Source: an uncultured Planctomycetaceae bacterium (GTDB lineage: Bacteria; Planctomycetota; Planctomycetia; Planctomycetales; Planctomycetaceae). Taken from it: a DNA stretch of 64,000 nucleotides. A program made the translations under genes and the position numbers. The notes under the pieces are model-generated. The model ran no database searches. It had not been told where the DNA came from and was given only the letters and a program-made list of their open reading frames with translations. Shown piece after piece: positions 4,187 to 16,875 of this stretch. The stretch covers positions 64,001 through 128,000 of the forward strand of contig CAWFGE010000006.1 of the NCBI GenBank assembly GCA_963815195.1, given 5' to 3'. The stretch's first letter is position 1. The number at the start of each line of letters is the position of its first letter.

Positions 4187-5405
4187 CTATTCCGATTTCG
4201 CAAGCCGGGGGGCTAAGACCTCTTTGGACAGGCGGATGATTTCGAGATGCTCCACGTCGCGGATCGCGGCGCCCAGATCGCTGGGGAGTTCGGCCGCCGG
4301 TTCCGCTCCTTTGGCTTTCAACCGAAAGTCCACGACAAACGCTCCCGCCTGGAGGCCGGGCGAGACGAACTCGGGCGGCCACAGGGCGCGGACGACCTTG
4401 CGGAAGTGCTGGGCCAAGAGAAACGTTCCCACCATCGAAAACCCGCCCATCACGACTTCCGCCACGCCCTCCGCCGGGCGGTAGCTGTAAAAAATCAACG
4501 CCGGCTCGCGATCACTGTTGGAAGGGATCATCTCCCAAGTGCCGGGTTCGCGTTCAAAGTAGATTCCCGGCTCCTCGGATGAGATGTGTTGGCCGCTGAG
4601 ATCCGCCGCCAGCACGCGGCCGCCGTGGCAGGAGGGCACGTTGACGTCGGTGTCGCGGTATCGATAAAAGAACGGGCACGCGCGGTCGCCGGGCTTCGAG
4701 ACGCGGTCCTGCGTGCCCCAAGGCGTTGCGGAAAACGCCCGCGCAATCGCCAACTCGCAAAGTCCGTTGCTTTTGACGGACCCCAAACACACGAGGGCCC
4801 GGCTGCCGGGGATGCCGTCGAACCGTTCATAAGCCGACGTCGCCTCCTCCTTCATTTGCTGGAACTCCGCATCGCGCTCGGCGGGTTTGGCTTCCTGTGA
4901 CCTCATGGAGCAGCTTCCGCACCATGTACTGGTCGAACCGCGGCGCGAGGTCGGCGGGAATCGGCTGCGGAACGAGCGGCGCATCTTGAAGCGGTTCGTC
5001 CGGGGCGAGCGAGCCCTGCTCGGTGCCGTAGAGTTCGTGCAAAAGCATGCCCTGCAAATACGAATCGGAGGCCGGGATCCACAGCAGCCCGGTGTCGTGC
5101 ATTTCGTGCCGAACCCCAAACGACATCACGAGCACCTGGCGTTCTGCGAGGAATGCCCAAAAATTTTCCGGTTCAAGCGAAAAGAGCCGGCCCGGTAAAT
5201 CGTAAGAAGAGAGGTGATGGGTATTGATCAAGTAGTCGCAAATCGCCCCCAGGCTGTTGAGCGAGAGATATTGCACTTCGTTTTTCAAAAGCGCCGAGAC
5301 CTGATGCCGCTCGAGTCCGGTTTCTTCCGAAATTTTTTTAATGGTGCCTCGTCCGGTGTCCCGGAGTTCGTTGAGGAGTTCCGCGAGTCGAAATCTAACT
5401 TGCAT
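4187..5405 (-). CDS. XRE/Cro-C1 HTH transcriptional regulator with large C-terminal domain (~405 aa); frameshift near 4915, probably an indel
   Basis: N-terminus MQVRFRLAELL..TIKKISEETGLERHQVSALLKNEVQYLSLNSLGAICDYL is a typical XRE HTH. ORFs 4827-5471 and 4187-5119 join if one base is removed at cggaagc. Confidence 0.7.
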
Positions 5406-5697
5406 AGGAAGCCTCTTATGGCGGTTTATTCTCCACAGAAACCTATGGCGGTTTGTTTTCCCAAAAGACACGGCTTTGGGCAGGAAGGACGCCGAAAGGA
5501 CGCACGAGTTGTCACTGTGTTCACTTTAGGATCCTTCATGGTTCATAAAAAAACAACAACGCAAGTATTTACTGAATAATATGTTAAGGCGTTAGACCCG
5601 AAGGTCTCCTGAAAGGCGCGATCCATGAGCCTTTCGTTTGTGTCAAAGTTTGCCGATTGATCCAAACAAGTCAACATTTCCGAATTGTAGATTTTTT

Positions 5698-5714
5698 TTC
5701 CGAAACCGTCGGAA
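5698..5714. promoter_or_regulatory. Candidate operator palindrome in the AT-rich divergent promoter region
   Basis: TTCCGA-AACCG-TCGGAA; a further TTCCGA half-site at ~5678; lies between the divergent HTH gene and the Ub-like cluster. Confidence 0.3.
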
Positions 5715-5797
5715 TTTTCTTGATTCCCGATTTGGGCAAGTTACCATGATTCTCAATGTCATACCAACGGTCGCTCGCCGTTAAGGAGGTCAAGCTC

Positions 5798-6196
5798 ATG
5801 ACATCGAATCCCCCTCCCGTTGAACAGTGGGACCCTTTCTTTCGCGACGTGCAGCTCAAACTGGTCGACCGGCTGGGCCTTCAAAACGTCGTTATCTCGG
5901 TGGGGCGTCACAGAGGCTCCAACGGGAAAGTGGAGGTGAGCCTCTTCAACCAAGTTTCCTCCTCGGACGCGTCGGAGCGGGACCCCACGATCCAATGCCC
6001 CGCGGATCCAAAAATCGCCGCCAATGAACTCCCGAAGGAAATTCAAGCAATCTTAGACACGTTGCTGGCGGGTTGTTCGGTCAATTTCGGAGACATCTAC
6101 TTTTTTGTGAACCGAGGTTGGCTGCGGAAAACCATGTTTACCGTCTCCGCCCGGCCGGACGAATCCTCGTATCCTTTCTTCATTGTCAACATTTGA
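5798..6196 (+). CDS. Hypothetical protein (132 aa), first gene in the direction of the Ub-like cluster
   Basis: Strong RBS aaggaggt upstream of ATG 5798 (ORF open from 5756); C-terminal helix-beta-beta weakly reminiscent of DUF2292. Confidence 0.6.
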   Translation: MTSNPPPVEQWDPFFRDVQLKLVDRLGLQNVVISVGRHRGSNGKVEVSLFNQVSSSDASERDPTIQCPADPKIAANELPKEIQAILDTLLAGCSVNFGDIYFFVNRGWLRKTMFTVSARPDESSYPFFIVNI

Positions 6197-6432
6197 TTGG
6201 GAGATTGTTCCGGTCACTCGTCGTTTGGGCAGCTGCTCGCTGCAAACCGAGGTGACCGCCCGCTCTTTCTGATTCTGATCTTCCCCGGAAAGAGTTGCAA
6301 CAACTTTATCCTTGGATGACCCGCGTTTGCAAAACGAGGTCGGCCAATTGTTTCGCCCCATCCCCCGCGGAGGGTGGCGAAAGACTGGCCGGCCTCGTTT
6401 TTTTTGGCCTCTCGCCTAAAGGAATTTTTGAC

Positions 6433-7029
6433 ATGACTCTGCTCTCCCCGCATTCCAAGGCCTGGAGCCTGCGAAAAGAAAAAATCCTCCAGGTCCTCGG
6501 GGACTTCTCCCAGAAAAGTCCGGCGATGTCCTTGTTGAGTTTCGAAGACACCGGCGACGAGGTGCGGGGGATTGTCCAGTTCGAGACCGAGACCCTGGTG
6601 AAACTGCCGGGGCAAGACGTGCAACTGGCCGGTCCCGTGGTCGCCGGGATTCGCTATCACCACCTGTTCCAATCGCAGGCCCCCGTGCCCTGGGAACTCG
6701 TCACGATCCTGTTCCCGATGGCGGTGTATCACCCGAACGTGAATGCGGGCGGGGGGTTATGTCTCGGACATCCCGCGGCCAACGTGCCGATGGACTTGAT
6801 TCTCCACATGACCTGGGCGGCGCTGGTGCTCAACACCCGCCTGGTCACGACCACGGATTGGAACGTGTTCAACCGCGAGGCCGCCGCGTTCGTTCGCCAG
6901 CACAAGGGCCGGTTTCCGCTGACCGAACGGGGCCTGTTGGAAGCCGTTCCGCTTCCCGCCGCCGTCTCCCAAACCGCCGTTCAAAACCCGACCGCCCCGA
7001 CCCCGCCAAAGGAGGAAGCTCAATCATGA
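6433..7029 (+). CDS. Ubiquitin-conjugating enzyme E2 (UBC fold, canonical HPN...C active site)
   Basis: FPMAVYHPNVNAGGGLCLGH matches the UBC signature F-x-x-x-(I/V)YHPNV...G-x-(I/L)CL; downstream FNREAAAF matches the N-x-EAA helix. Confidence 0.85.
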   Translation: MTLLSPHSKAWSLRKEKILQVLGDFSQKSPAMSLLSFEDTGDEVRGIVQFETETLVKLPGQDVQLAGPVVAGIRYHHLFQSQAPVPWELVTILFPMAVYHPNVNAGGGLCLGHPAANVPMDLILHMTWAALVLNTRLVTTTDWNVFNREAAAFVRQHKGRFPLTERGLLEAVPLPAAVSQTAVQNPTAPTPPKEEAQS

Positions 7030-7907
7030 TTGCCGCCCAAAAGTCCGCCGTGCGCACCATACCCGATTGCCTGCTCAAATGCGGCTGGTCTCCGCGGGGC
7101 CGATTGCAGAATTCGTTCTGCCTGCAGACGCCCCAAGGCGAAGCCGTGCTCGAACGCCAGCCCGCGAATGCTCAAAGCGGGTGGACGGAATGGATTTTAG
7201 ATAGCCCGCATCTTCCAAAGCCGGAGCCGCAAGGCGTGTTCTCGGCCAATCGCCAGATCGAGGGGCCTTGGAAATTCGTGGTCACACCCGCGGGCGAGGT
7301 TATTTGCCGGGGCGATTTCCCACGGGAGGCGAACGTGACCGACGATGCGTTCGACCTGGCCGCGGGGCGAACCTGGTCGCCTTTGGAATTCTGGGCGGAG
7401 TCGGCGACGCACATCGCCCAAACCGGTTCGTCCTCTCTGGTCGATGCGCCCAAACCGCCGGCTCCGGCCTTGGTGCATTGGCTTAAGGAGCATGGCTTTG
7501 TGGCGTCGGCCGACGGCGAAGCGGTGAAGGTGACGGTTCCGCTCTCCGGCACGTTCCGCGAGGTCGCGGTCGATTGGGGCCAGGATGGAAACGTTCGGCT
7601 CCAAGCCGAGATCGGCCGGCTCGCGGGCTGGCCGGAATCTTCACGCGCCGCCGCGGAGGATTTTCTGGAGGAAGCCAATCGCCGGCTGCGGCTCGTCCGC
7701 GTGGCTCAGCCGGGCGAAGAGAAGGTGTATTGCCTGGAGGCGTGTTTTTGTGCGCCCGGTCCCGGTGTCTGGTTGCAGTCGGCCTTGGATGCCCTCTGCA
7801 CCGGCATGGCGCTCTTAGTTCAGCCGTTGGCCGCGCTCCGGGATCCCGGCGTGGCCGACATGCTCTTGGCCGGCAGTTCGGCCAAACGAAAAGGAGGTGT
7901 CGAATGA
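7026..7907 (+). CDS. Uncharacterised protein (293 aa), possibly with YbjN/T3SS-chaperone-like domain(s)
   Basis: ATGA overlaps with both neighbours (translational coupling); segments FLEEANRRLRLVRV...VYCLEACF and VFSANRQIEGPWKFVV...EVICRGDF resemble the YbjN fold pattern. Confidence 0.6.
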   Translation: MIAAQKSAVRTIPDCLLKCGWSPRGRLQNSFCLQTPQGEAVLERQPANAQSGWTEWILDSPHLPKPEPQGVFSANRQIEGPWKFVVTPAGEVICRGDFPREANVTDDAFDLAAGRTWSPLEFWAESATHIAQTGSSSLVDAPKPPAPALVHWLKEHGFVASADGEAVKVTVPLSGTFREVAVDWGQDGNVRLQAEIGRLAGWPESSRAAAEDFLEEANRRLRLVRVAQPGEEKVYCLEACFCAPGPGVWLQSALDALCTGMALLVQPLAALRDPGVADMLLAGSSAKRKGGVE

Positions 7908-8209
7908 CCGCAGTCTTGGACGCCCCCGTGATCCCGGATGAACTCACCATCGAAGTGAGCGATCCCACGGGGTTCCAGCACGTCACATTGGAAGGGGTCC
8001 GGGCCTCGGCCACCACCAGCGACATTGTCGCGATGGCAAAGGGTGCGCTGCGTTTGCCCCCGAACGTCCTGTGGGACCTTCGGGAAGAACGCAGCAGCCG
8101 CTTGCTGCCGCCCGATTCTCGTATCGGTGATGTGGCCGGGGAAGCAGCCCCGCACGTCAAGGTGACGATGCAGCCGGATGCCGGCCTCGCCGGCCATCGG
8201 GTTTGCTAA
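7904..8209 (+). CDS. Ubiquitin-like beta-grasp protein (YukD/EsaB-like), C-terminus ...QPDAGLAG-HRVC
   Basis: RBS aaggaggt, ATGA overlap; LTIEVSD-TG..VTL (b1-b2), TTSDIVAMAKGALRLP (helix), WDLR..RLLPPDSRIGDV..VKVTMQP ubiquitin-fold pattern; context next to E2 and JAB. Confidence 0.7.
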   Translation: MTAVLDAPVIPDELTIEVSDPTGFQHVTLEGVRASATTSDIVAMAKGALRLPPNVLWDLREERSSRLLPPDSRIGDVAGEAAPHVKVTMQPDAGLAGHRVC

Positions 8210-8388: not shown

Positions 8389-9501
8389 ATGAAAACATCA
8401 ACTTCTCCGCTGGCCTTTGCCGATCCCGCAGCCGGTGCGAATGACGCAAAACGGTTTGGCTACCGCCTGGTGTTCCAGCGGGCGTCCGACGGCAAACGCC
8501 TGGATACAGGCTTCGCCGATCCGTTCTGGCTGGAGAGTCTCAAAGAGCAAGCGATTTTCCAGGCCCAGCGCCGGGGCCTTGTCGCTGCCGATCCCGCGCA
8601 GGCCGTCGTCTCGGAGCATCCGCTATTCGCGGAAAATACCGACGGCCGGCTCAAGGGATTCGCGATGGCCGCGGGCGAAGGGGAATCCTCGCATTGGACG
8701 CATTTTGAATTGGCGTCCGCCTTCTCCGCCCCGGCGGAAACGGCCCTCCAAAAACTTCTGGAAAGCAAACAACTCGGCACCGACGACAAAGTCACGTTCC
8801 AAATCTTCGCCGAGCCGGCGTCCGAAACCCAGGAAGATGCACCGCAAAACCCCGGCGTGCGGGCGACGGTCCAGCGCAATCCGCTGCCGCTCCTCGCAGG
8901 CCGGCTCTCCGATTTTCTCCCCGATGCCAAACCCAGCGGCGAGATGCAGGAGAAGGACCATCACCTGTTTCTGCCGCGAAAGCTGTTCGAGCAGGCGCGG
9001 GACTATTGCTTCAAAACCGGCAAACAGGAAGGCGGGGCGATGATCGTGGCCCGGATGTATCGCCAGACCGAACCGGAGCCGGACCTCTTCGTCGTGGCAC
9101 ACGCGGTCGTGGAGCTTCGCCATGCCAAGCAGTCGCAGTTCGGGTTCGAGCCGACGTCGGAAACCTTCGCGGACCTGGGAACCCAGCTCAATCTCCGGCG
9201 GACGCGGCTGGGTTTTCCAGAAGAGGTGCCCGCGGTTTTGGTGCATAACCATCCGTTCGAGCCGTCGGTCCGCGACGACGGCGAAGCCAACTGCCCGGCC
9301 TGCCCGCTGCAGCAGGAGTGCCAACTGACCTCGAGCTTTTATAGCGCCAGCGATGTGAATTTCCACCTCAGCATGTACGGCAGCCAGCCGTTCGTGGCGG
9401 GGATTGTGATCGGTCTCACGCCCCGCCGGGAAGACGACGTCCGCATGTTCATTTTGGACGGCACCAAAACCCGCGAACGCGGCTTTCATTGGATCGAATA
9501 G
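8389..9501 (+). CDS. JAB/MPN+ metallopeptidase (putative deconjugase) with N-terminal extension and Cys-rich insert
   Basis: RBS aaggag; E in KQEGGAM, HNHP, FYSASD = E...HxH...SxxD JAMM motif; insert CPACPLQQEC between HxH and SxxD. Confidence 0.8.
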   Translation: MKTSTSPLAFADPAAGANDAKRFGYRLVFQRASDGKRLDTGFADPFWLESLKEQAIFQAQRRGLVAADPAQAVVSEHPLFAENTDGRLKGFAMAAGEGESSHWTHFELASAFSAPAETALQKLLESKQLGTDDKVTFQIFAEPASETQEDAPQNPGVRATVQRNPLPLLAGRLSDFLPDAKPSGEMQEKDHHLFLPRKLFEQARDYCFKTGKQEGGAMIVARMYRQTEPEPDLFVVAHAVVELRHAKQSQFGFEPTSETFADLGTQLNLRRTRLGFPEEVPAVLVHNHPFEPSVRDDGEANCPACPLQQECQLTSSFYSASDVNFHLSMYGSQPFVAGIVIGLTPRREDDVRMFILDGTKTRERGFHWIE

Positions 9502-9690: not shown

Positions 9691-11400
9691 ATGTCGCTCA
9701 AACCTCCCCAGAATCCCGTTGACTTCCACAAAGCCATCGAAATCTGCCGGCAGTTGAATCTGCCCCCCAAGGCCCGGGCGGAGACGCTCATCTATTTAGT
9801 GATGGAGCAGGGGCTGGATTTGGCGCCGGCCCTTGCGGAGATTCTCAATGAGGCCGACGAAGGCCGGGTCAAAAAGGCCGAGGAAGACGAGGAACACACC
9901 CCTCTGTTGCCGGTGCGGTTCATCGCGCATGTGAAAGTGGGCGGCAAAGCGTACGCGGTCGTGACCGGTCCGCAGGGCACGACTTATCTGCCTTGCTCCG
10001 ATCAGGAGATCAAGGGGCTCGAGTTCGGGGATTCGGTGCTCGTCGATTCCAAGAAAGGCCGCGTGGTCGGCCGCGACGGCGCGGTCCCCCCGGCCGGGGA
10101 AGTCGTGCCGGTGGACAGCTTGTCCGCCGACGATGCCGGGCAGGTCGTGGTCAAAGTCCAGGAGCAGGAAGTCATGGCCCGCGTGCCGCTCAAACTCCGC
10201 CGGGAATCGCCGATCCAGCCGGGACAGCGGGTGATCTTCGACGCGGCGACGCGGTTCATCGACCAGGTCGTCCACAGCGGTTCCGACGGCGAGGAGTTGT
10301 TGACCGATCTGGATTCGCTGGATTCGGTCTCCCGCGCCGATTTGGGCGCGCCGCATCCGGTGCTGGACGACATGCTGTTCCGCATCCGCCAGGACGTTTT
10401 GTATCCCGAATGGGCCCGGCAAATGGGGGCCCGGCTTTCGGCGAGCTACCTGCTCTCCGGCCCGACCGGCACCGGCAAAACGATGCACCTCAAAGTCCTG
10501 GCCCGCGAAGTGGCCGACTTCCTCGAAGACCTCACCGGCGAACGCACCAGTCCGCTGATCACCGTCGATGCCAATTCCTTCTATTCGCCCTGGTTCGGCT
10601 CGACGGAAAGCAAGATTCATTCCTTCTTCGAGCGGCTCCACAAATTGGGGGCCAAACAGATGACGACCAAGGACGGCGTCATCGCGACGCGGCCGCTGAT
10701 CGTTACGCTCGAAGAATGCGAAGCCCTCCTGCGGTCGCGCGGCGAAATGGGAGGCAGCGGGCATTTGTTCGATCGGCCTCTGTCGCTGATCCTGCAGAAA
10801 ATCAGTTCGCTGGGGAACGATCTCCACATGCCGGTGTATTTCGTCGCCACCACCAATCGGCCCGACTTGTTGGATGCGGCGGCCCGGCGGCGGATCGGGA
10901 TTCGGCACGTCGTGTTGGGCACATTGACTGCCGCCCAAGCCGCGAGCGTCCTGGAAACCAAACTCGGGCCTTCGATGAAGTACCGCGGGGCGGAGGCTGC
11001 GGATCAATCCCGGCAGCAACTCGTCCAGCAGGTGCTGAATTTCCTGTTCGCGGGGGATGATGCGGCGCAGGGGATTGCGGAGGTGCGGTTCCTCGACAAC
11101 AACCGCCGCACGCTCTGCCGCCGGCATCTCGTGACCGGGGCGATGCTGGAAGAAGCCGTGAGCGCCGCCACGGACGACTGCCTCAAAGAAAGTGCCGAGG
11201 CGGGCGAACTCGTGGGCATCGATGCCCAGGGGGTGATTCGCTCGCTGGAGTCGCAATTCCGCAGCCTGGCGGGAACGCTGCGAGCCCACAACCTGCCCGA
11301 ATATTGCCCGCAATGGTTCGCGGACGAGCCGTTGCGCGTGGAGCACGTCCGCCCGCTCGCCGGCCGCACCCGCCGCCCGGCCTCGTGGGCGGTCAATTAA
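9691..11400 (+). CDS. ARC/Mpa-like (proteasomal-type) AAA+ ATPase
   Basis: Short N-terminal helical region, two OB-like segments (LEFGDSVLVD; IQPGQRVIFD), Walker A GPTGTGKT, pore loop SPWFGSTESKI, Walker B variant IVTLEECE, ATTNRPDLLDAAARRR, and ARC-like AEVRFLDNNRRTL..HLVTGAMLEEAV. Confidence 0.8.
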   Translation: MSLKPPQNPVDFHKAIEICRQLNLPPKARAETLIYLVMEQGLDLAPALAEILNEADEGRVKKAEEDEEHTPLLPVRFIAHVKVGGKAYAVVTGPQGTTYLPCSDQEIKGLEFGDSVLVDSKKGRVVGRDGAVPPAGEVVPVDSLSADDAGQVVVKVQEQEVMARVPLKLRRESPIQPGQRVIFDAATRFIDQVVHSGSDGEELLTDLDSLDSVSRADLGAPHPVLDDMLFRIRQDVLYPEWARQMGARLSASYLLSGPTGTGKTMHLKVLAREVADFLEDLTGERTSPLITVDANSFYSPWFGSTESKIHSFFERLHKLGAKQMTTKDGVIATRPLIVTLEECEALLRSRGEMGGSGHLFDRPLSLILQKISSLGNDLHMPVYFVATTNRPDLLDAAARRRIGIRHVVLGTLTAAQAASVLETKLGPSMKYRGAEAADQSRQQLVQQVLNFLFAGDDAAQGIAEVRFLDNNRRTLCRRHLVTGAMLEEAVSAATDDCLKESAEAGELVGIDAQGVIRSLESQFRSLAGTLRAHNLPEYCPQWFADEPLRVEHVRPLAGRTRRPASWAVN

Positions 11401-11583: not shown

Positions 11584-11898
11584 ATGAACTTTCGATTGCT
11601 CAAGAAGAAACTCGATTCCGAAATCCAACCGCAACAGCCCCTCGGCGGCGGAGGCGATCCTTCCGGCGGCGATGGCTGTCCGCAGGGCAGCGTGTTCTGC
11701 CGGCATGGGATTCATTCCGGCTGGTTTCCCATCGCGGGGATGCGGCTGGGCGACGCCCGGCCGATTCTCAATCAGTTGCTCAACATCGACCCCGAAGCCG
11801 TCGCCGTGATCAACGGCCAGATTGTCAACGACGATTTCATCATCGGCGAGGATGTCGAGCTTTTGAACTTCGTCAAGAAATCTTCAATCAAAGGCTGA
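11584..11898 (+). CDS. Ubiquitin-like/ThiS-MoaD-type beta-grasp protein 1 (C-terminal Gly, ...KKSSIKG)
   Basis: RBS aaggag; GMRLGDAR..LNIDPEAVAVINGQIVNDDFIIGEDVELLNFVK..G pattern; Gly/Pro-rich N-terminal tail. Confidence 0.8.
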   Translation: MNFRLLKKKLDSEIQPQQPLGGGGDPSGGDGCPQGSVFCRHGIHSGWFPIAGMRLGDARPILNQLLNIDPEAVAVINGQIVNDDFIIGEDVELLNFVKKSSIKG

Positions 11899-11901
11899 CC
11901 G

Positions 11902-12201
11902 ATGACGCGTCCTTCAAACCAACATCCCAAACCCGCAAAAGCCGTCCTCGAAAACGAGGCCGCTCGCGAAGGCCCCGAAGAATCGCCCCAGGGCATCTTT
12001 TGCCGTCACGGGATTTTTTCGGGCCGGTTTCCCATTGCGGGCCTGCGGCTCGGCGAGGTTCGGCCGGTGCTCAGCCGGTTGCTTAACATCGATCCCGAAG
12101 CCGCGGCGGTGGTGGATGGGCGGTTGGTGGGAGACGACTTTCTCATCGGTGACGACGTGGAACTTTTGAATTTCATCAAACCTTCTGGAATCATGGGGTG
12201 A
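11902..12201 (+). CDS. Ubiquitin-like beta-grasp protein 2 (tandem paralogue, ...KPSGIMG)
   Basis: 47/67 identical residues to 11584-11898 over the core (counted by hand); unrelated N-terminal tail. Confidence 0.8.
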   Translation: MTRPSNQHPKPAKAVLENEAAREGPEESPQGIFCRHGIFSGRFPIAGLRLGEVRPVLSRLLNIDPEAAAVVDGRLVGDDFLIGDDVELLNFIKPSGIMG

Positions 12202-13025
12202 CGTTTATGACTGCATCGACGCTCGAGGAGATCCTCCTCAACGACAAAGAATACGAAGTTCGCGGCGGGGACGGCGAACCGTTCCGGGGCCAACTCGGCG
12301 ACCTCATCGACGCGGTGCGGAAAAACGCCATCGTCGGATTCGAGGAAAACCCGCTACCCAAGAACAACCTGGCGTGGAAAATCGAAGCGGGGCCGCTCAC
12401 GGTGTGCATTGTGGAATTGGAGCCGGCCTTTCGCGTGCTCCAGTGGATTCACCCGGAAAGCGCGATGCCTTACGGTCCCGAGGCGATTTACACGCCCCGC
12501 AGCCTGGCCACGCCTTACGTGGTGCTCAAGGTGTCTTTCGTGGCGGGACACATCACCTCGCGGGCGGAACTGTTTTACCGCAACCGCCGGCTGGCGAATT
12601 TGAATGATGAACTCTACTGGCCGAACCTGCTCAACGTCAGCCCCCACGCCTACGGCTGCCGGGCCTGGATCTGCACGCAGTATCTGCGGACCGAGCATTT
12701 TCAGCCGGGCGTCACCCAGGGGCTCGATGCGCTGCTCCATCATCTGTGGGGCGGCGGATTCAACCGCTCCAGCGAACGTCACGAAGGCAACTCGGCCTTC
12801 AGCAAGGCGGCCAAGGACAAGATCGATTCCCGCGTGACCGACGTGGGCCGCTGGGAGCAGGAATCGATCAAGAACCCCCGCTTCGTGTTGGATGTGAAAT
12901 GGAAACCGGTGGGCGTCACCGTGCGGCAGTTGATTCAGGATGAGCTGGATCACCACAAACCCGTCCGCGACCTGAGCCGCACGGGGGAACTCGTCAACCT
13001 GCTCTCCATGACCCGCCGGTCGTGA
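12198..13025 (+). CDS. Prokaryotic E2-like protein (Prok-E2 family D / PRTRC protein B-like)
   Basis: GTGA overlap with the Ubl stop; SLATPYVVL, ELYWPNLLNVS...WICTQ (candidate catalytic Cys), LWGGGFN; flanked by Ubl, JAB and ThiF. Confidence 0.65.
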   Translation: MTFMTASTLEEILLNDKEYEVRGGDGEPFRGQLGDLIDAVRKNAIVGFEENPLPKNNLAWKIEAGPLTVCIVELEPAFRVLQWIHPESAMPYGPEAIYTPRSLATPYVVLKVSFVAGHITSRAELFYRNRRLANLNDELYWPNLLNVSPHAYGCRAWICTQYLRTEHFQPGVTQGLDALLHHLWGGGFNRSSERHEGNSAFSKAAKDKIDSRVTDVGRWEQESIKNPRFVLDVKWKPVGVTVRQLIQDELDHHKPVRDLSRTGELVNLLSMTRRS

Positions 13026-13083
13026 ATGACCAAAGAATGATCGCAACTCTGTTTTCAAGCGGACGGGGTCCCACGCCCCTGAT

Positions 13084-13144
13084 CGCAGCGAAGGGCGTGG
13101 CGATCGCAAAGACCACGCCCTTCGTTCCTCAGGGCGTGCCACCC
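13084..13144 (+). repeat. Dispersed palindromic repeat; inverted copy at 59835-59895
   Basis: cgcagcgaagggcgtggcga...gaccacgcccttcgttcctcagggcgtgccaccc, near-identical reverse complement at 59835-59895. Confidence 0.8.
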
Positions 13145-13202
13145 GTGTCACTCAAGTCTCTAGCCACTTTTGTGAAACACAACTCGCAAAGGACCAACTG
13201 CC

Positions 13203-14078
13203 ATGAACTTTGAGATTCTCATCAAAACGCTCCACACCGAGCTGCCCGAACTCAAGCCGGGGCAGTTTCGGTATGTGCTCGGGCGGGACGGTTTGCACGT
13301 GGAACGGGCCACGCCGATGTATACGAGCAGCGTGAAAGTCGACGGCCCGGTTCCGTTTCTCGCGGAGCATCCCCAGCAATGCCGGCTCAATTGCGGGCCG
13401 ATTCCCTCGAACATGCTCCGGCAGATGGTGGGCTTTTTCCAGGCGGCCTACCACATGCACGGCGGCGAAGCGGCCCTCGTTCTGTTGTACTTTCCCGCAA
13501 CCGGAAAGTTCGCCTGGCATTGCCCGAAGCAGACGATTCGGATGTATTCGTCGTGGGGCAAGTTCCGCGCGGACGATTCGGTGGAATACGACAACCCGCT
13601 GTCGCTGCCGGCGGGCGCGGTGCAATTCGGCGATGCCCATTCCCACATCGGCCCACCGATCCCTTCGATCATGGATCAAAACGATGAAGCCCATTTGGAT
13701 GGCCTGCATATCATCGTGGGAAACATCTCCAGCCGGTTTCCACGATGGCACATTGATTTTTGCATCGACGGCCACCGCTTCTCGGTGCCGACCGACATGA
13801 TTCTCGAAGCCGTCCCCGAAGCCCCATTTCCGGAACCGCCGGTCGGATGGACGCAGCAAATCCAGTTGGTTTATCCCTCGTGGAAAACCGAATCCTACTC
13901 GGCTTCCAAGCCGCGAACGTCCACGTGGAGCAGTTCAAGCCACTCCCGCTTCGGCTCCTCCAAGAACCAGAACGGTTCCGGCAGCCGGGACTCTGTGGAA
14001 GAGAACGACGAGTCGCCTCCGTCTGCATCCGAGAAACCCGCCGCCGAATCCCAACCCAGCGACGAGGATGAATCATGA
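13203..14078 (+). CDS. Prok-JAB metallopeptidase (PRTRC protein A-like)
   Basis: YVLGRDG N-terminus, GPIP..LRQMVGFF, GEAALVLLY, DAHSH..PSIMDQNDE..DGLHIIVGNI; Ser-rich/acidic disordered tail. Confidence 0.85.
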   Translation: MNFEILIKTLHTELPELKPGQFRYVLGRDGLHVERATPMYTSSVKVDGPVPFLAEHPQQCRLNCGPIPSNMLRQMVGFFQAAYHMHGGEAALVLLYFPATGKFAWHCPKQTIRMYSSWGKFRADDSVEYDNPLSLPAGAVQFGDAHSHIGPPIPSIMDQNDEAHLDGLHIIVGNISSRFPRWHIDFCIDGHRFSVPTDMILEAVPEAPFPEPPVGWTQQIQLVYPSWKTESYSASKPRTSTWSSSSHSRFGSSKNQNGSGSRDSVEENDESPPSASEKPAAESQPSDEDES

Positions 14079-14896
14079 TGAATCCCGACACCGAAAAACC
14101 AACGACCGCCGCGGAGAAAATCGCCCGGCAACTGGAAACCCGCTGGCTCGCCGAGGGCCGGATTGTGGTCATCGGCCTGGGCGGAATCGGGTCGATTCTC
14201 GCCCGGTATCTGGTGCTGTTTCTGGCGAGCCTGCCGGACGAGTTTCGCGTGCTGCTTGCCGACGGCGACAGTTTTGAACCGGACAACACCTACCGCATGG
14301 ATGTGCCCGGCTATCAGAACAAGGCCGTGGCGATGGACATGGAACTCAGCGAGCGGTTCGGCCGCGAGGGTTTGGTGATCCGCTCGAAAGCGAAATATCT
14401 CAGCCCCGGCAACACGGACGACCTGATCCGCGAGGGCGACTTCGTGCTGCTCTGCGTCGACAACCATGCCACCCGCAAACTCGCCAGCGACCGGTTAAGC
14501 GAACTCGATAACGGGGCGATCGTCTCCGCGGGCAACGACGGCGTCGGCGACGGCGAGCGGGGCACTTATGGGAACCTGCAGATCTACGCCCGGCAAAACG
14601 GGGAAACCATCGCCGGCGGGCCCTTCGATATGTTTCATCCCGAAATCGCCGAGCCGGAGGATGTCTTCCCCGACGAAATGGACTGCATGGAACTGGCCGC
14701 ACAAGGGGCGCCGCAACTTTTGCCGATGAACCTGGCGATGGCCTCGGCGATGCTCTCGGCGGTGCTCCGGTTTCTGATGCCTCCGCCAGACGAATCGATG
14801 TACGACGAGGTGTGCCTCGATATTTTGGAAGCCACGGCCGTTCCGCAATGGCTGACCCGGCCGCAAAAACGCCCGAAGCCTTCGACCCCCGTTTGA
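14075..14896 (+). CDS. ThiF/E1-like activating enzyme (PRTRC ThiF-like)
   Basis: ATGA overlap; IGLGGIGS, DGDSFEPDNTYR, NKA, CVDNHATR, candidate catalytic Cys in MDCMELAAQGAPQLLPMN. Confidence 0.9.
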   Translation: MMNPDTEKPTTAAEKIARQLETRWLAEGRIVVIGLGGIGSILARYLVLFLASLPDEFRVLLADGDSFEPDNTYRMDVPGYQNKAVAMDMELSERFGREGLVIRSKAKYLSPGNTDDLIREGDFVLLCVDNHATRKLASDRLSELDNGAIVSAGNDGVGDGERGTYGNLQIYARQNGETIAGGPFDMFHPEIAEPEDVFPDEMDCMELAAQGAPQLLPMNLAMASAMLSAVLRFLMPPPDESMYDEVCLDILEATAVPQWLTRPQKRPKPSTPV

Positions 14897-14921: not shown

Positions 14922-15548
14922 ATGAAAACGTTCTGCCTGCATCCCATCCGCCGGGCGGTGCTCGATTCCGATCCGCCGCTGTTGTGCATTTCGTCCGCCG
15001 ATTGCCGGGAGGCCCCGCGGATGGTCTGGATCACCAAACGGGGCCGCTTGCGGAGTTCCCCTGCTCAACAAGTCCACGAAACCGCCCGGCGGATGGCGCG
15101 CCTCTTGTACCGCGATGCGGGCCACGGCAATTCGCAATGGCTCTTTGCGCCGCTGTGTGACGAAGTGCTGCACAATGGCATCCGGCCGCTGGCGATCGCG
15201 ATCATCGAACCGGGCGACGTGCTCGCCCTCGGCGAAGAATGCTGGTTCGCGTCGGAACTCTGGCGGCCGGCCCCGGTCCCGGCTCCGGAAAACATCGCCG
15301 AGAAGGAATGCTCCGTCTGCGGCGGCCCGCTCAAATTGGCCCCGGTCATCCAATGCCCCTGCGGGCGGTATTATCACCTCGAGCATCCCGAAACCCCGGA
15401 CGATCCGCAGGCGTTGAATTGCTACCTGACGGCCGGCATGTGCGGATTGTGCGAACGCAAGCCGAGCCTCGAACCGCAGTTTCTCCCAACGCCGCCGGAA
15501 GAATTGATCCCGGAAGACCACCTCGCCGCCGCGCTTGCCGCGGTGTGA
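14922..15548 (+). CDS. FHA-like + C4HC3 zinc finger (Prok-RING/PHD-like) protein, candidate E3
   Basis: RBS aggag; VLHNGIRPLAIAIIEPGDVLALG resembles the FHA C-terminal strands; CSVC-x11-CPC-x4-H-x14-C-x6-CGLC gives eight Zn ligands. Confidence 0.65.
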   Translation: MKTFCLHPIRRAVLDSDPPLLCISSADCREAPRMVWITKRGRLRSSPAQQVHETARRMARLLYRDAGHGNSQWLFAPLCDEVLHNGIRPLAIAIIEPGDVLALGEECWFASELWRPAPVPAPENIAEKECSVCGGPLKLAPVIQCPCGRYYHLEHPETPDDPQALNCYLTAGMCGLCERKPSLEPQFLPTPPEELIPEDHLAAALAAV

Positions 15549-15711
15549 ATGCGTTTCGCGATTGGAAAGGATTGAACCACCGATAAACGAATAAGACGAA
15601 TAAAGACCCACATGGCTTTTATCCGCGCGCCTCCGCGTTCTCCGCGGTCCATATCTTTGGCTTTGTTTGATTCGTCGCTCAACGCGGCTTGATCTTGTGA
15701 GAGGTATTGTC

Positions 15712-16875
15712 ATGGCTCAAGAGGTTTTATCCGAACACGATTTGGCTTCGTGTTGGCCGGCGATTCCCAGTGTGGACTGGCGGCTCCTCGGACAAACGCG
15801 ATTTGTGTTCGTGGGCGCGGGGGCGGTGAATCGGCCGCTGGCATTCCAGTTGGCGTGGTTGGGGATGAAGGGGTGCATCGTCATCGATCCCAAACCGTAC
15901 AAATCCCAAAGCGTCATTTCGCAATGCAAACCTTGCGAAGTCGGGCGGTTTAAAGCCGAAGTTGTCGCGGAGGAGCTTCAGAAGCGGGGCGTCGCGGCGA
16001 CGCCCTTCGTGAAAGACGTGGACGTGGTGCCGCCCGGCTATTTGGAAGGGGACAGCCTCGTCATCGTGGCGGTGGACAATCGCCGGGCCGACATTTGTGC
16101 GAACCGCTTCGCCGCCCGCATGCGCCGGCCGCTGGTGAAAGTCAACGTGGATCCCAATTACCTCACCGCGTCCATTCGCTGTTACGACCTGCGAAACGGT
16201 CCCCTCGCTCTGTGCGCGGAATGCCAAATGACGGATCGGCATTACGAAGAGCAACGGCACCCCTTAAGCTGCGACGGCGGCGAAGTGGGAGAACAAGCCA
16301 CAGGCAGCCCGCGGCCGCTCAGCCAGTTCGCCGCGAATGCCGCGGCTTTGGCCGTCGCCCAAATCGCCGGTTCGCCCGACGAATGGGCCAAGACCTGGTG
16401 GGGAAAGCAATGGCAGCAAAACCTGTTGGGCGGCCGGGGCTTTTTTTCGGATCTCGAACCCAACCCCCATTGCCGCTGGGATCACGCCGCGGCTTGGGAT
16501 CCGCTGATCTTCCTGCCGCACGATCAGCCCATCAGCCTCTCGCATCTGGCCAAGGGAACATTCGGCTCAATGCCGACTTGGGAAGTCGAGTTTTCCGCGC
16601 GGGTCGCGACGCGGATGGTCTGTTCCCAATGCCGAGCCTCCGAGGAAGGCGTGTGGTGGGTCGCGGAACTCGACCGGCCGGTGACGCGTTGCGGTTGCGG
16701 CGGCGAGAGTTTTGCGCTGCCGTTCTTCACCCACAAAAAACTCCCGGCCGCGGAGCTCGAATCCGTTTGGAACCGGCCGCTCGCCGCGTGGGGCGTGACG
16801 CCGGGTTCTGTTCTCCGCTTCGCCTCGGCTTCCAAGAACCAAATGTACTGTTTGCGCGTTCCAAGATTGCCTTAG
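15712..16875 (+). CDS. E1/ThiF-family enzyme with C-terminal Zn ribbon and ubiquitin-fold-like domain
   Basis: RBS gaggt; FVGAGAV, EVGRFKAEV, AVDNRRA, CAEC, PLSC (candidate catalytic Cys), CSQC...CGC, RPLAAWGVTPGSVLRF. Confidence 0.8.
   Translation: MAQEVLSEHDLASCWPAIPSVDWRLLGQTRFVFVGAGAVNRPLAFQLAWLGMKGCIVIDPKPYKSQSVISQCKPCEVGRFKAEVVAEELQKRGVAATPFVKDVDVVPPGYLEGDSLVIVAVDNRRADICANRFAARMRRPLVKVNVDPNYLTASIRCYDLRNGPLALCAECQMTDRHYEEQRHPLSCDGGEVGEQATGSPRPLSQFAANAAALAVAQIAGSPDEWAKTWWGKQWQQNLLGGRGFFSDLEPNPHCRWDHAAAWDPLIFLPHDQPISLSHLAKGTFGSMPTWEVEFSARVATRMVCSQCRASEEGVWWVAELDRPVTRCGCGGESFALPFFTHKKLPAAELESVWNRPLAAWGVTPGSVLRFASASKNQMYCLRVPRLP

Follow-up and report, generated by a model that had tools for sequence, protein, structure and literature searches.

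The window, a stretch of 64,000 nucleotides from an uncultured Planctomycetaceae bacterium, harbors an operon with the gene order 146-aa protein, E2, YbjN-like protein, Ubl, JAB1, AAA+, two Ubls, 275-aa protein, JAB2, E1a, FHA-RING and E1b, with the genes from the E2 onward on the plus strand. The E2 (6433..7029) is of the HPN type, with H100-P-N, seven residues and C110 as alignment invariants, and its profile retrieved UBE2C from the PDB (E 0.0019); the matches listed are E2 enzymes. It is followed by the syntenic YbjN-like protein of the outer module (7026..7907; PF10722, E 1.9e-4), the outer-module Ubl (7904..8209), a JAB1 metallopeptidase-like gene with an HNH...SASD motif (8389..9501), whose homologue in locus L053 matches Prok-JAB (E 3e-7), and an Mpa/ARC-like AAA+ ATPase (9691..11400; AAA 4.3e-17; TIGR03689 1.1e-26, below its cut-off). 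The inner cassette (11584..14896) comprises two Ubls ending in Gly, a 275-aa unknown protein, JAB2 and the ThiF-family gene E1a. E1b (15667..16875; ThiF, E 3.9e-6), a ThiF-like E1 with a Cys-rich C-terminal part, lies directly downstream of the FHA-RING gene. PDB sequence searches with E1b and the 275-aa protein gave no useful matches. The outer Ubl ends in ...QPDAGLAG followed by HRVC, and its relatives end in ...AGLG or ...DAGG plus a tail. A comparison of AGLAG plus HRVC in the window (7904-8209), a tail of HPGC in locus L001 and a bare AGLG in locus L004 (12882-13172) indicates that the need for C-terminal processing varies among relatives. Upstream of the operon a Cro/C1-type HTH gene is located in divergent orientation (4827-5471, minus strand; HTH_26, E 2.2e-7), and the GC content dips to 0.52 beside it (5001-6000).

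The FHA-RING gene (14922..15548, plus strand) starts with ATG and encodes 208 amino acids plus stop. It begins 25 bases past the stop codon of E1a and ends 118 bases before E1b, and its GC3 of 0.78 is on par with that of its neighbours. An earlier note, written from the DNA letters, had proposed this open reading frame as a bacterial FHA-like protein with a C4HC3 finger; the frame is real, and all strings named there are present in its translation, among them VLHNG at residues 82-86 and IEPGDVLALG at residues 95-104. The start codon is supported because M1 is invariant in the first 19 homologues. The encoded protein can be divided into a predicted FHA-fold beta-sandwich (residues 1-118; 14922..15275), a C4HC3 binuclear zinc finger (residues 130-177; 15309..15452) and a C-terminal tail (residues 178-208; 15453..15545), which is conserved and Pro-rich in its first part (R179, L183, P185, P189, L195) and continues as a variable terminal helix.

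A search of 5.8 billion clustered proteins recovered 19 relatives by single sequence and 38 by profile, all with E values of 1.5e-41 or below and lengths of 192-221 residues. The clusters belong to Planctomycetota wherever a name is given, and the gene neighbourhood shows conserved synteny. Scans of contig collections located the gene at four loci in species-representative genomes, from Planctomycetaceae (two), Thermoguttaceae and Gemmataceae, and at six loci in metagenomes; among the latter, L009 does not differ from L004 across the compared region. In a sample of 401 Planctomycetota genomes the sole match was the window's own genome, and the close FHA-RING family is therefore rare and patchy. 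Neither Pfam nor NCBIfam nor PADLOC assigned a family to the protein at E <= 0.01, and a sequence profile search of the PDB returned nothing significant (top match an AN1 finger, E 1.3).

The zinc ligands were assessed in an alignment of the 38 family members, which share 37-100% identity with the window protein. All eight predicted ligands, C130, C133, C145, C147, H152, C167, C174 and C177, are invariant (38/38), and the remaining residues among the 19 Cys and His of the window protein are each conserved in at most 29 of 38 sequences. This pattern of conservation is far beyond chance, and it falls on exactly those residues that had been read from the letters as C-S-V-C, C-P-C, H, C and C-G-L-C. 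The resulting spacing is C-x2-C-x11-C-x-C-x4-H-x14-C-x6-C-x2-C. H155 would be an alternative sixth ligand with canonical H-x2-H spacing, and it was ruled out by its conservation in just eight of 38 members; the C4HC3 assignment with the long 14-residue spacer from H152 to C167, which had been noted at the outset, is accordingly correct. The spacer between ligands 5 and 6 constitutes a family-specific conserved insert (residues 153-166; 15378..15419) with L153, E154, P156, L165 and N166 as its invariant residues, and judged from the alignment it is not junk. V132, located between ligands 1 and 2, is likewise invariant (38/38). The linchpin of eukaryotic RINGs is an Arg or Lys at position +1 after the last ligand; in the family, R or K is found at C177+2 in 36 of the 38 members and the +1 residue is variable.

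The finger (residues 114-208) was modelled alone with AlphaFold from a nine-sequence alignment (pLDDT 84.0). RING E3 domains head the Foldseek list, with the RING of RNF12 on top (probability 0.97, target TM 0.57, E 0.054, rmsd 3.0 over 72 columns), and none of the Foldseek matches reached E <= 0.001. The best eight rows of the exhaustive structural aligner VIA are all RING-H2 E3s, namely, RNF12, ZNRF1, Ark2C, RNF165, RNF38, Praja-1, RNF13 and gp78, and the first 21 rows after realignment of the Foldseek candidates are RING E3 entries. The Z scores (4.0-5.2 after realignment; 5.2 for RNF12 in VIA, with rmsd 2.8, 57 aligned residues and 30% identity) are modest for a domain of 60 residues and of a size that can reflect a common arrangement. 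The span matching the RING-H2 E3 domains comprises residues 114-190, and the predicted model contains the hairpin (142-152) and the helix (167-170) of the RING fold. The C-terminal finger is thus predicted to fold as a RING-H2-like cross-brace, in which C130, C133, H152 and C167 would form site I and C145, C147, C174 and C177 site II. Absence of a predicted cross-brace had been set beforehand as one refuting outcome; the model instead predicts a cross-brace, with RING E3 domains as the top fold matches. C4HC3 is also the signature of PHD fingers, and TFIIH p44, C1 domains, PARP zinc fingers and PHD fingers occur among the lower-ranked fold matches, so that a PHD-, C1- or nucleic-acid-binding-type finger, with a reading or regulatory function outside conjugation, deserves mention together with the sub-threshold PHD and C1 matches of some canonical Prok-RING_1 proteins. 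Such a finger is highly improbable, because RING E3 domains outrank these folds in three structure searches and the operon context consists entirely of conjugation machinery.

The closest described sequence family is Prok-RING_1 (PF14446), which we take to have been defined by Burroughs, Iyer and Aravind in 2011. The window protein scores below its gathering cut-off of 29.1 bits, reaching 12.8 bits over its full length and 15.8 bits when the C-terminal half is scored alone, and it is not one of the two matches in its own genome. Homology emerges at the profile level: an hhalign comparison of the family finger with 28 canonical Prok-RING_1 sequences gave 87% (E 3.9e-6) over 34 columns that cover the first half of the finger and end at the insert. 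The canonical spacing, derived from 29 planctomycete fingers, is C-x2-C, about 12 residues and C-x2-C-x4-H-x2-C-x6-C-x4-C. Both types share the C4HC3 ligand order, the arrangement of C-x2-C, 11 to 12 residues, a second Cys pair, four residues and His, and the six residues separating ligands 6 and 7. They differ in the His-to-Cys spacer (two residues versus 14 in the window protein) and in two Cys pairs, which read C-x2-C and C-x4-C in the canonical proteins and C-x-C and C-x2-C in the window finger. On sequence grounds, the finger is a divergent relative of Prok-RING_1.

Prok-RING_1 is common in the phylum, with matches in 129 of 401 Planctomycetota genomes at E <= 0.01, in 61 of them above the cut-off. 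Partner domains in the 28 canonical proteins are DUF4190, trypsin-like, zinc-ribbon and TPR domains and none is ubiquitin-related, so a finger of this type does not by itself imply an E3. A Pfam FHA domain is absent from all 28, in contrast to the window finger with its fused FHA-fold domain. The family is strongly expanded in some lineages, as documented by matches in 11 of 11 genomes of family f23, and several Planctomycetota genomes contain at least 16 matches. In the window's own genome, but outside the window, two canonical Prok-RING_1 genes have a canonical FHA-domain ORF at a distance of about 1.8 kb (contig C17, 60654-63493), which represents a second FHA/RING association in this genome, there as separate genes. 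A metagenome ORF (L010, 20-1288, plus strand) combines an exosortase (EpsH) membrane domain with a C-terminal finger that has the same CPCGRYYH string as the window family, yet canonical H-x2-C spacing.

The N-terminal part was assigned from predicted structure. The AlphaFold2 model of the whole protein, based on a 19-sequence alignment, has a mean pLDDT of 85.4 and a pTM of 0.80, and Foldseek matched it to FHA domains in the PDB, the best being that of KIF1A (E 5.8e-4). Exhaustive structural alignment against 48,161 chains yielded 12 chains with Z >= 8, with Rad53 as the best match (Z 8.9, rmsd 2.8, 87 aligned residues). An FHA domain is named in the title of 31 of the best 50 rows, and the other 19 are presumably FHA-bearing proteins as well. 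All FHA matches fall on residues 1-118, and a language-model look-up with the same residues pointed, as a lead only, to FHA clusters (scores 0.86-0.88). We conclude from the model that the first 118 residues are predicted to form an FHA sandwich, a fold of eleven beta-strands, packing against the finger.

At the sequence level this relationship is hardly visible. Pfam found no FHA match in residues 1-126 at E <= 10, the protein is not among the 36 canonical FHA domains detected in the scan of its genome, and hhalign against 12 of these domains reached only 21.8% over 40 columns in the last strands. This signal sits in precisely the segment VLHNG...IEPGDVLALG that had been interpreted as the terminal strands of an FHA domain, an interpretation that agrees with the predicted fold. 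The phosphothreonine-binding residues (Gly-Arg, Ser-x-x-His and loop Ser/Asn), whose G, R, S, H, S and N do not vary among the 12 canonical domains, have no conserved counterpart in the 38-member family, in which G86 and the near-conserved N85 and G98 are the sole residual FHA-type positions. The initial caution that GR and SxxH could not be recognized was thus justified. Taken together, the fold is predicted to be that of an FHA domain and its chemistry not that of a phosphothreonine reader. The mean pairwise identity within the family is 35% for the FHA part versus 71% for the finger, and this difference fits a variable recognition module on what would be a constant catalytic adaptor.

The order of the two domains is reminiscent of the eukaryotic FHA-RING E3s RNF8, CHFR and Dma1, which bind phosphothreonine via conserved Arg, Ser, His and Asn residues and carry C3HC4-type RINGs. 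The RNF8/CHFR-like pairing claimed at first sight holds for the arrangement of an N-terminal FHA and a C-terminal RING in the predicted structures; it does not extend to the finger, which is C4HC3 instead of C3HC4, or to the phosphothreonine-binding residues, which are not conserved. The pairing is therefore best read as an analogy. In the structural ranking the FHA domain of RNF8 (2pie_A, Z 7.1) occupies position 33 and not the top, and Atlas rows combining FHA with RINGv (score 0.87) provide a lead only. Given the different type of finger, the likeness to eukaryotic FHA-RING E3s is probably convergent.

The gene neighbourhood ties the FHA-RING gene to conjugation enzymes. Locus L001 contains 13 of 13 genes in the order of the window, L002 the genes from JAB1 through RING, where the operon stops, and L005 and L006 the order E1a-RING-E1b; L004 starts with RING-E1b-E2-YbjN-Ubl-JAB1-AAA. 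E1b directly follows the RING gene in six of the eight distinct close loci with downstream DNA, the exceptions being L002 and L003. More distant relatives were found with a profile of the E2, which matched 18 of 401 planctomycete genomes, eight neighbourhoods of which were examined. A gene with 27% identity heads the operon RING-E1b-E2-YbjN-Ubl-AAA-Ubl-275aa-JAB2-E1a in genome G390 (locus L050). The interval between its outer Ubl and AAA+ gene measures only 237 bases (6245-6482) without a JAB1 match, and this operon seems to keep the inner JAB2 alone.

Four further operons (L051, L053, L054, L056) open with an FHA-RING-like protein of 185-270 aa, in which the FHA end-motif vNG...L.DRDEI is combined with a finger whose His-to-Cys spacer measures five to eight residues. 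An E1 gene directly follows in all four and an AAA+ gene is present in all four; an E2 was found in three (L051, L053, L054), and for L053 the positions of the Ubl and JAB genes were determined as well. Several of the operons are ordered RING-E1-E2-Ubl-JAB-AAA. Profile comparison of the two FHA-RING groups by hhalign gave 93.7% (E 2e-7), the alignment of 114 columns bringing all eight ligands into register, and the distant fingers match PF14446 with E values between 5.5e-6 and 0.14, so that these relatives bridge the window family to Prok-RING_1. The corresponding series of His-to-Cys spacers runs from two residues (canonical) via 5-8 (distant operons) and 11-12 (L050) to 13-14 (window family). 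The inner cassette is absent from these distant operons, which assigns the FHA-RING gene to the set formed by E1b, the HPN E2, the first Ubl and JAB1. The order RING-E1-E2 in five loci (L004, L050, L051, L053, L054) supports, at the level of gene order, the originally proposed connection with the HPN-type E2.

Taking the close and distant loci together, 10 of 12 have the RING gene immediately next to an E1 gene, the two being separated by a short gap or overlapping. This adjacency could point to a subunit that assists or regulates E1b, perhaps by gating the activation of Ubl or its passage from E1 to E2, and is not a target-selecting ligase. The variability of the FHA part fits varied targets better than a single constant E1 partner and, to our knowledge, no E1 requires a RING-fold partner; we consider a role of this kind distinctly unlikely. 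The AAA+ gene co-occurs with the RING gene in the window and in eight loci (L001, L002, L004, L050, L051, L053, L054, L056), as would be expected from a non-catalytic receptor or shuttle that binds Ubl-tagged proteins, free Ubl or the AAA+ protein and delivers its cargo to the unfoldase without activating the E2. The conserved tail after the finger could serve such a protein as a docking motif, and the canonical Prok-RING_1 proteins examined lack ubiquitin-related partner domains. However, the closest-linked neighbour of the gene is the E1 and not the AAA+ gene, the fold matches are E2-binding RING-H2 domains, and the invariant V132 occupies a place where E2 contacts are known, which makes a pure receptor unlikely.

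Downstream of the Mpa-like AAA+ gene, the distant operons carry genes of the Pup-ligase family (PF03136, E values between 1e-74 and 1e-97): L054 (14185-17743) and L056 (2185-5544, minus strand) have two each, and one was found in L051 (2097-3806, minus strand). The ubiquitin-like cassette of RING, E1 and E2 is therefore located directly upstream of pupylation genes. Small ORFs near or between the Pup-ligase genes of L053 (16111-16455, plus strand) and L056 (3744-4241, minus strand), with stop-to-stop lengths of 114 and 165 aa, end in ...QQGGQ and ...QAGGE, respectively. These ends resemble Pup C-termini; Pfam gave no match to either ORF at E <= 0.01. Directly upstream of the FHA-RING gene of L053 lies a gene for a TIR_2 protein (7002-7904, plus strand; E 3.2e-28; ThsB_TIR, 5e-8), a neighbour that hints at a defence context.

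Based on these data we favor, with moderate confidence, a role of the FHA-RING protein as the RING-type E3 of a eukaryote-like module consisting of E1b, the HPN E2, Ubl and JAB1. Using the invariant V132 and the short helix that follows C167, the finger would dock onto the Ubl-charged E2 and promote discharge of the Ubl, and the fast-evolving, phosphate-blind FHA domain would select the target protein. Tagged targets might then pass to the Mpa-like AAA+ unfoldase of the same operon, and the JAB peptidase may reverse or process the tag. The candidate E3 function is supported by the ligands (38/38), the RING fold matches, the profile link to Prok-RING_1, the E1 adjacency, the invariant V132 and an E2 that keeps the HPN, the seven residues and the Cys. 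Against it stand the Z scores of the finger of at most 5.2 together with Foldseek E values above 0.001, the PF14446 score below the cut-off, the hhalign match confined to the first half of the finger, the placement of the Arg at +2 instead of +1 after the last ligand, the partners of Prok-RING_1, which are not ubiquitin-related, and the two loci L002 and L003 without E1b after the gene. A further counterpoint comes from the Bil and Bub systems, whose gene lists contain no E3 in the available text of PMC11601596.

RING fingers of prokaryotes were predicted as E3s of Ubl/E1/E2/JAB operons by Burroughs, Iyer and Aravind in 2011, as cited in the available parts of PMC4197634 and PMC10557695, and related Ub/E1/E2/RING/JAB operons from Actinobacteria, Planctomycetes and Acidobacteria are mentioned in the former with reference to the same study. 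According to the accessible text of PMC10557695, RING-type E3s are rare in bacterial operons and the RING-containing operon families are uncharacterized, in agreement with the rarity of E3s in bacterial Ubl systems stated in the earlier note. The window operon shares Ubl, E1, E2 and peptidase genes with Bil (BilABCD) and Bub, but these are described without an E3 in the available text of PMC10557695 and PMC11601596, whereas here the FHA-RING gene is part of the outer module. The kind of protein is already known; new are the soluble fusion with a degenerate FHA domain and the long conserved insert. Our literature searches turned up no bacterial Ubl operon described as encoding a soluble FHA-RING fusion, and Burroughs et al. 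(2011) may describe one.

The prokaryotic RING with an experimental test in the cited literature is archaeal, namely, the small RING finger E3-like protein srfp of Candidatus Caldiarchaeum subterraneum, which according to the available text of PMC5654768 is required for ubiquitylation in vitro. When I30, which lies between ligands 1 and 2, W58 or R69 was mutated, ubiquitylation was weakened or lost, and I30Q abolishes it (same source). Like the window protein, srfp is a prokaryotic RING encoded alongside Ub, E1, E2 and a JAMM peptidase in one operon; ligands 1 and 2 enclose a hydrophobic residue in both (I30 in srfp, V132 in the window protein), and a basic residue follows the last ligand in both (R69 and R179). 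The ubiquitylation role of srfp was shown in vitro, whereas a ligase role of the window protein is predicted from sequence, models and gene order. Unlike srfp, the window protein possesses an FHA-fold domain and the long insert, and it is encoded in a doubled operon with an Mpa-like ATPase.

A more far-reaching scenario, which we regard as conceivable and put forward tentatively, is that of an endogenous bacterial RING E3 whose FHA domain chooses its targets, perhaps phage proteins or damaged ones, independently of phosphate and whose RING fires a eukaryote-like E2~Ubl, the tag then routing the target to an Mpa-type unfoldase. In relatives the cassette is placed directly upstream of pupylation genes, and here a second, Bil-like cassette would have been acquired instead. 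If true, this would represent a bacterial counterpart of ubiquitin-proteasome targeting, and the relatives physically connect ubiquitin-like tagging to the Mpa/Pup machinery. The family also illustrates how a substrate-recognition domain could have joined a RING outside eukaryotes. It offers a small, soluble and confidently modelled FHA-RING protein adjoining its cognate E1, E2, Ubl and peptidase, and in vitro reconstitution should therefore be straightforward. In the window's own genome, two adjacent Pup_ligase fragments outside the window (contig C1, 54335-55964, minus strand) occupy separate open frames; they correspond to positions 1-168 and 223-440 of the profile and point to a Dop/PafA-like gene that is split or frameshifted, and the single Proteasome-family match is a 191-aa ORF on contig C17.
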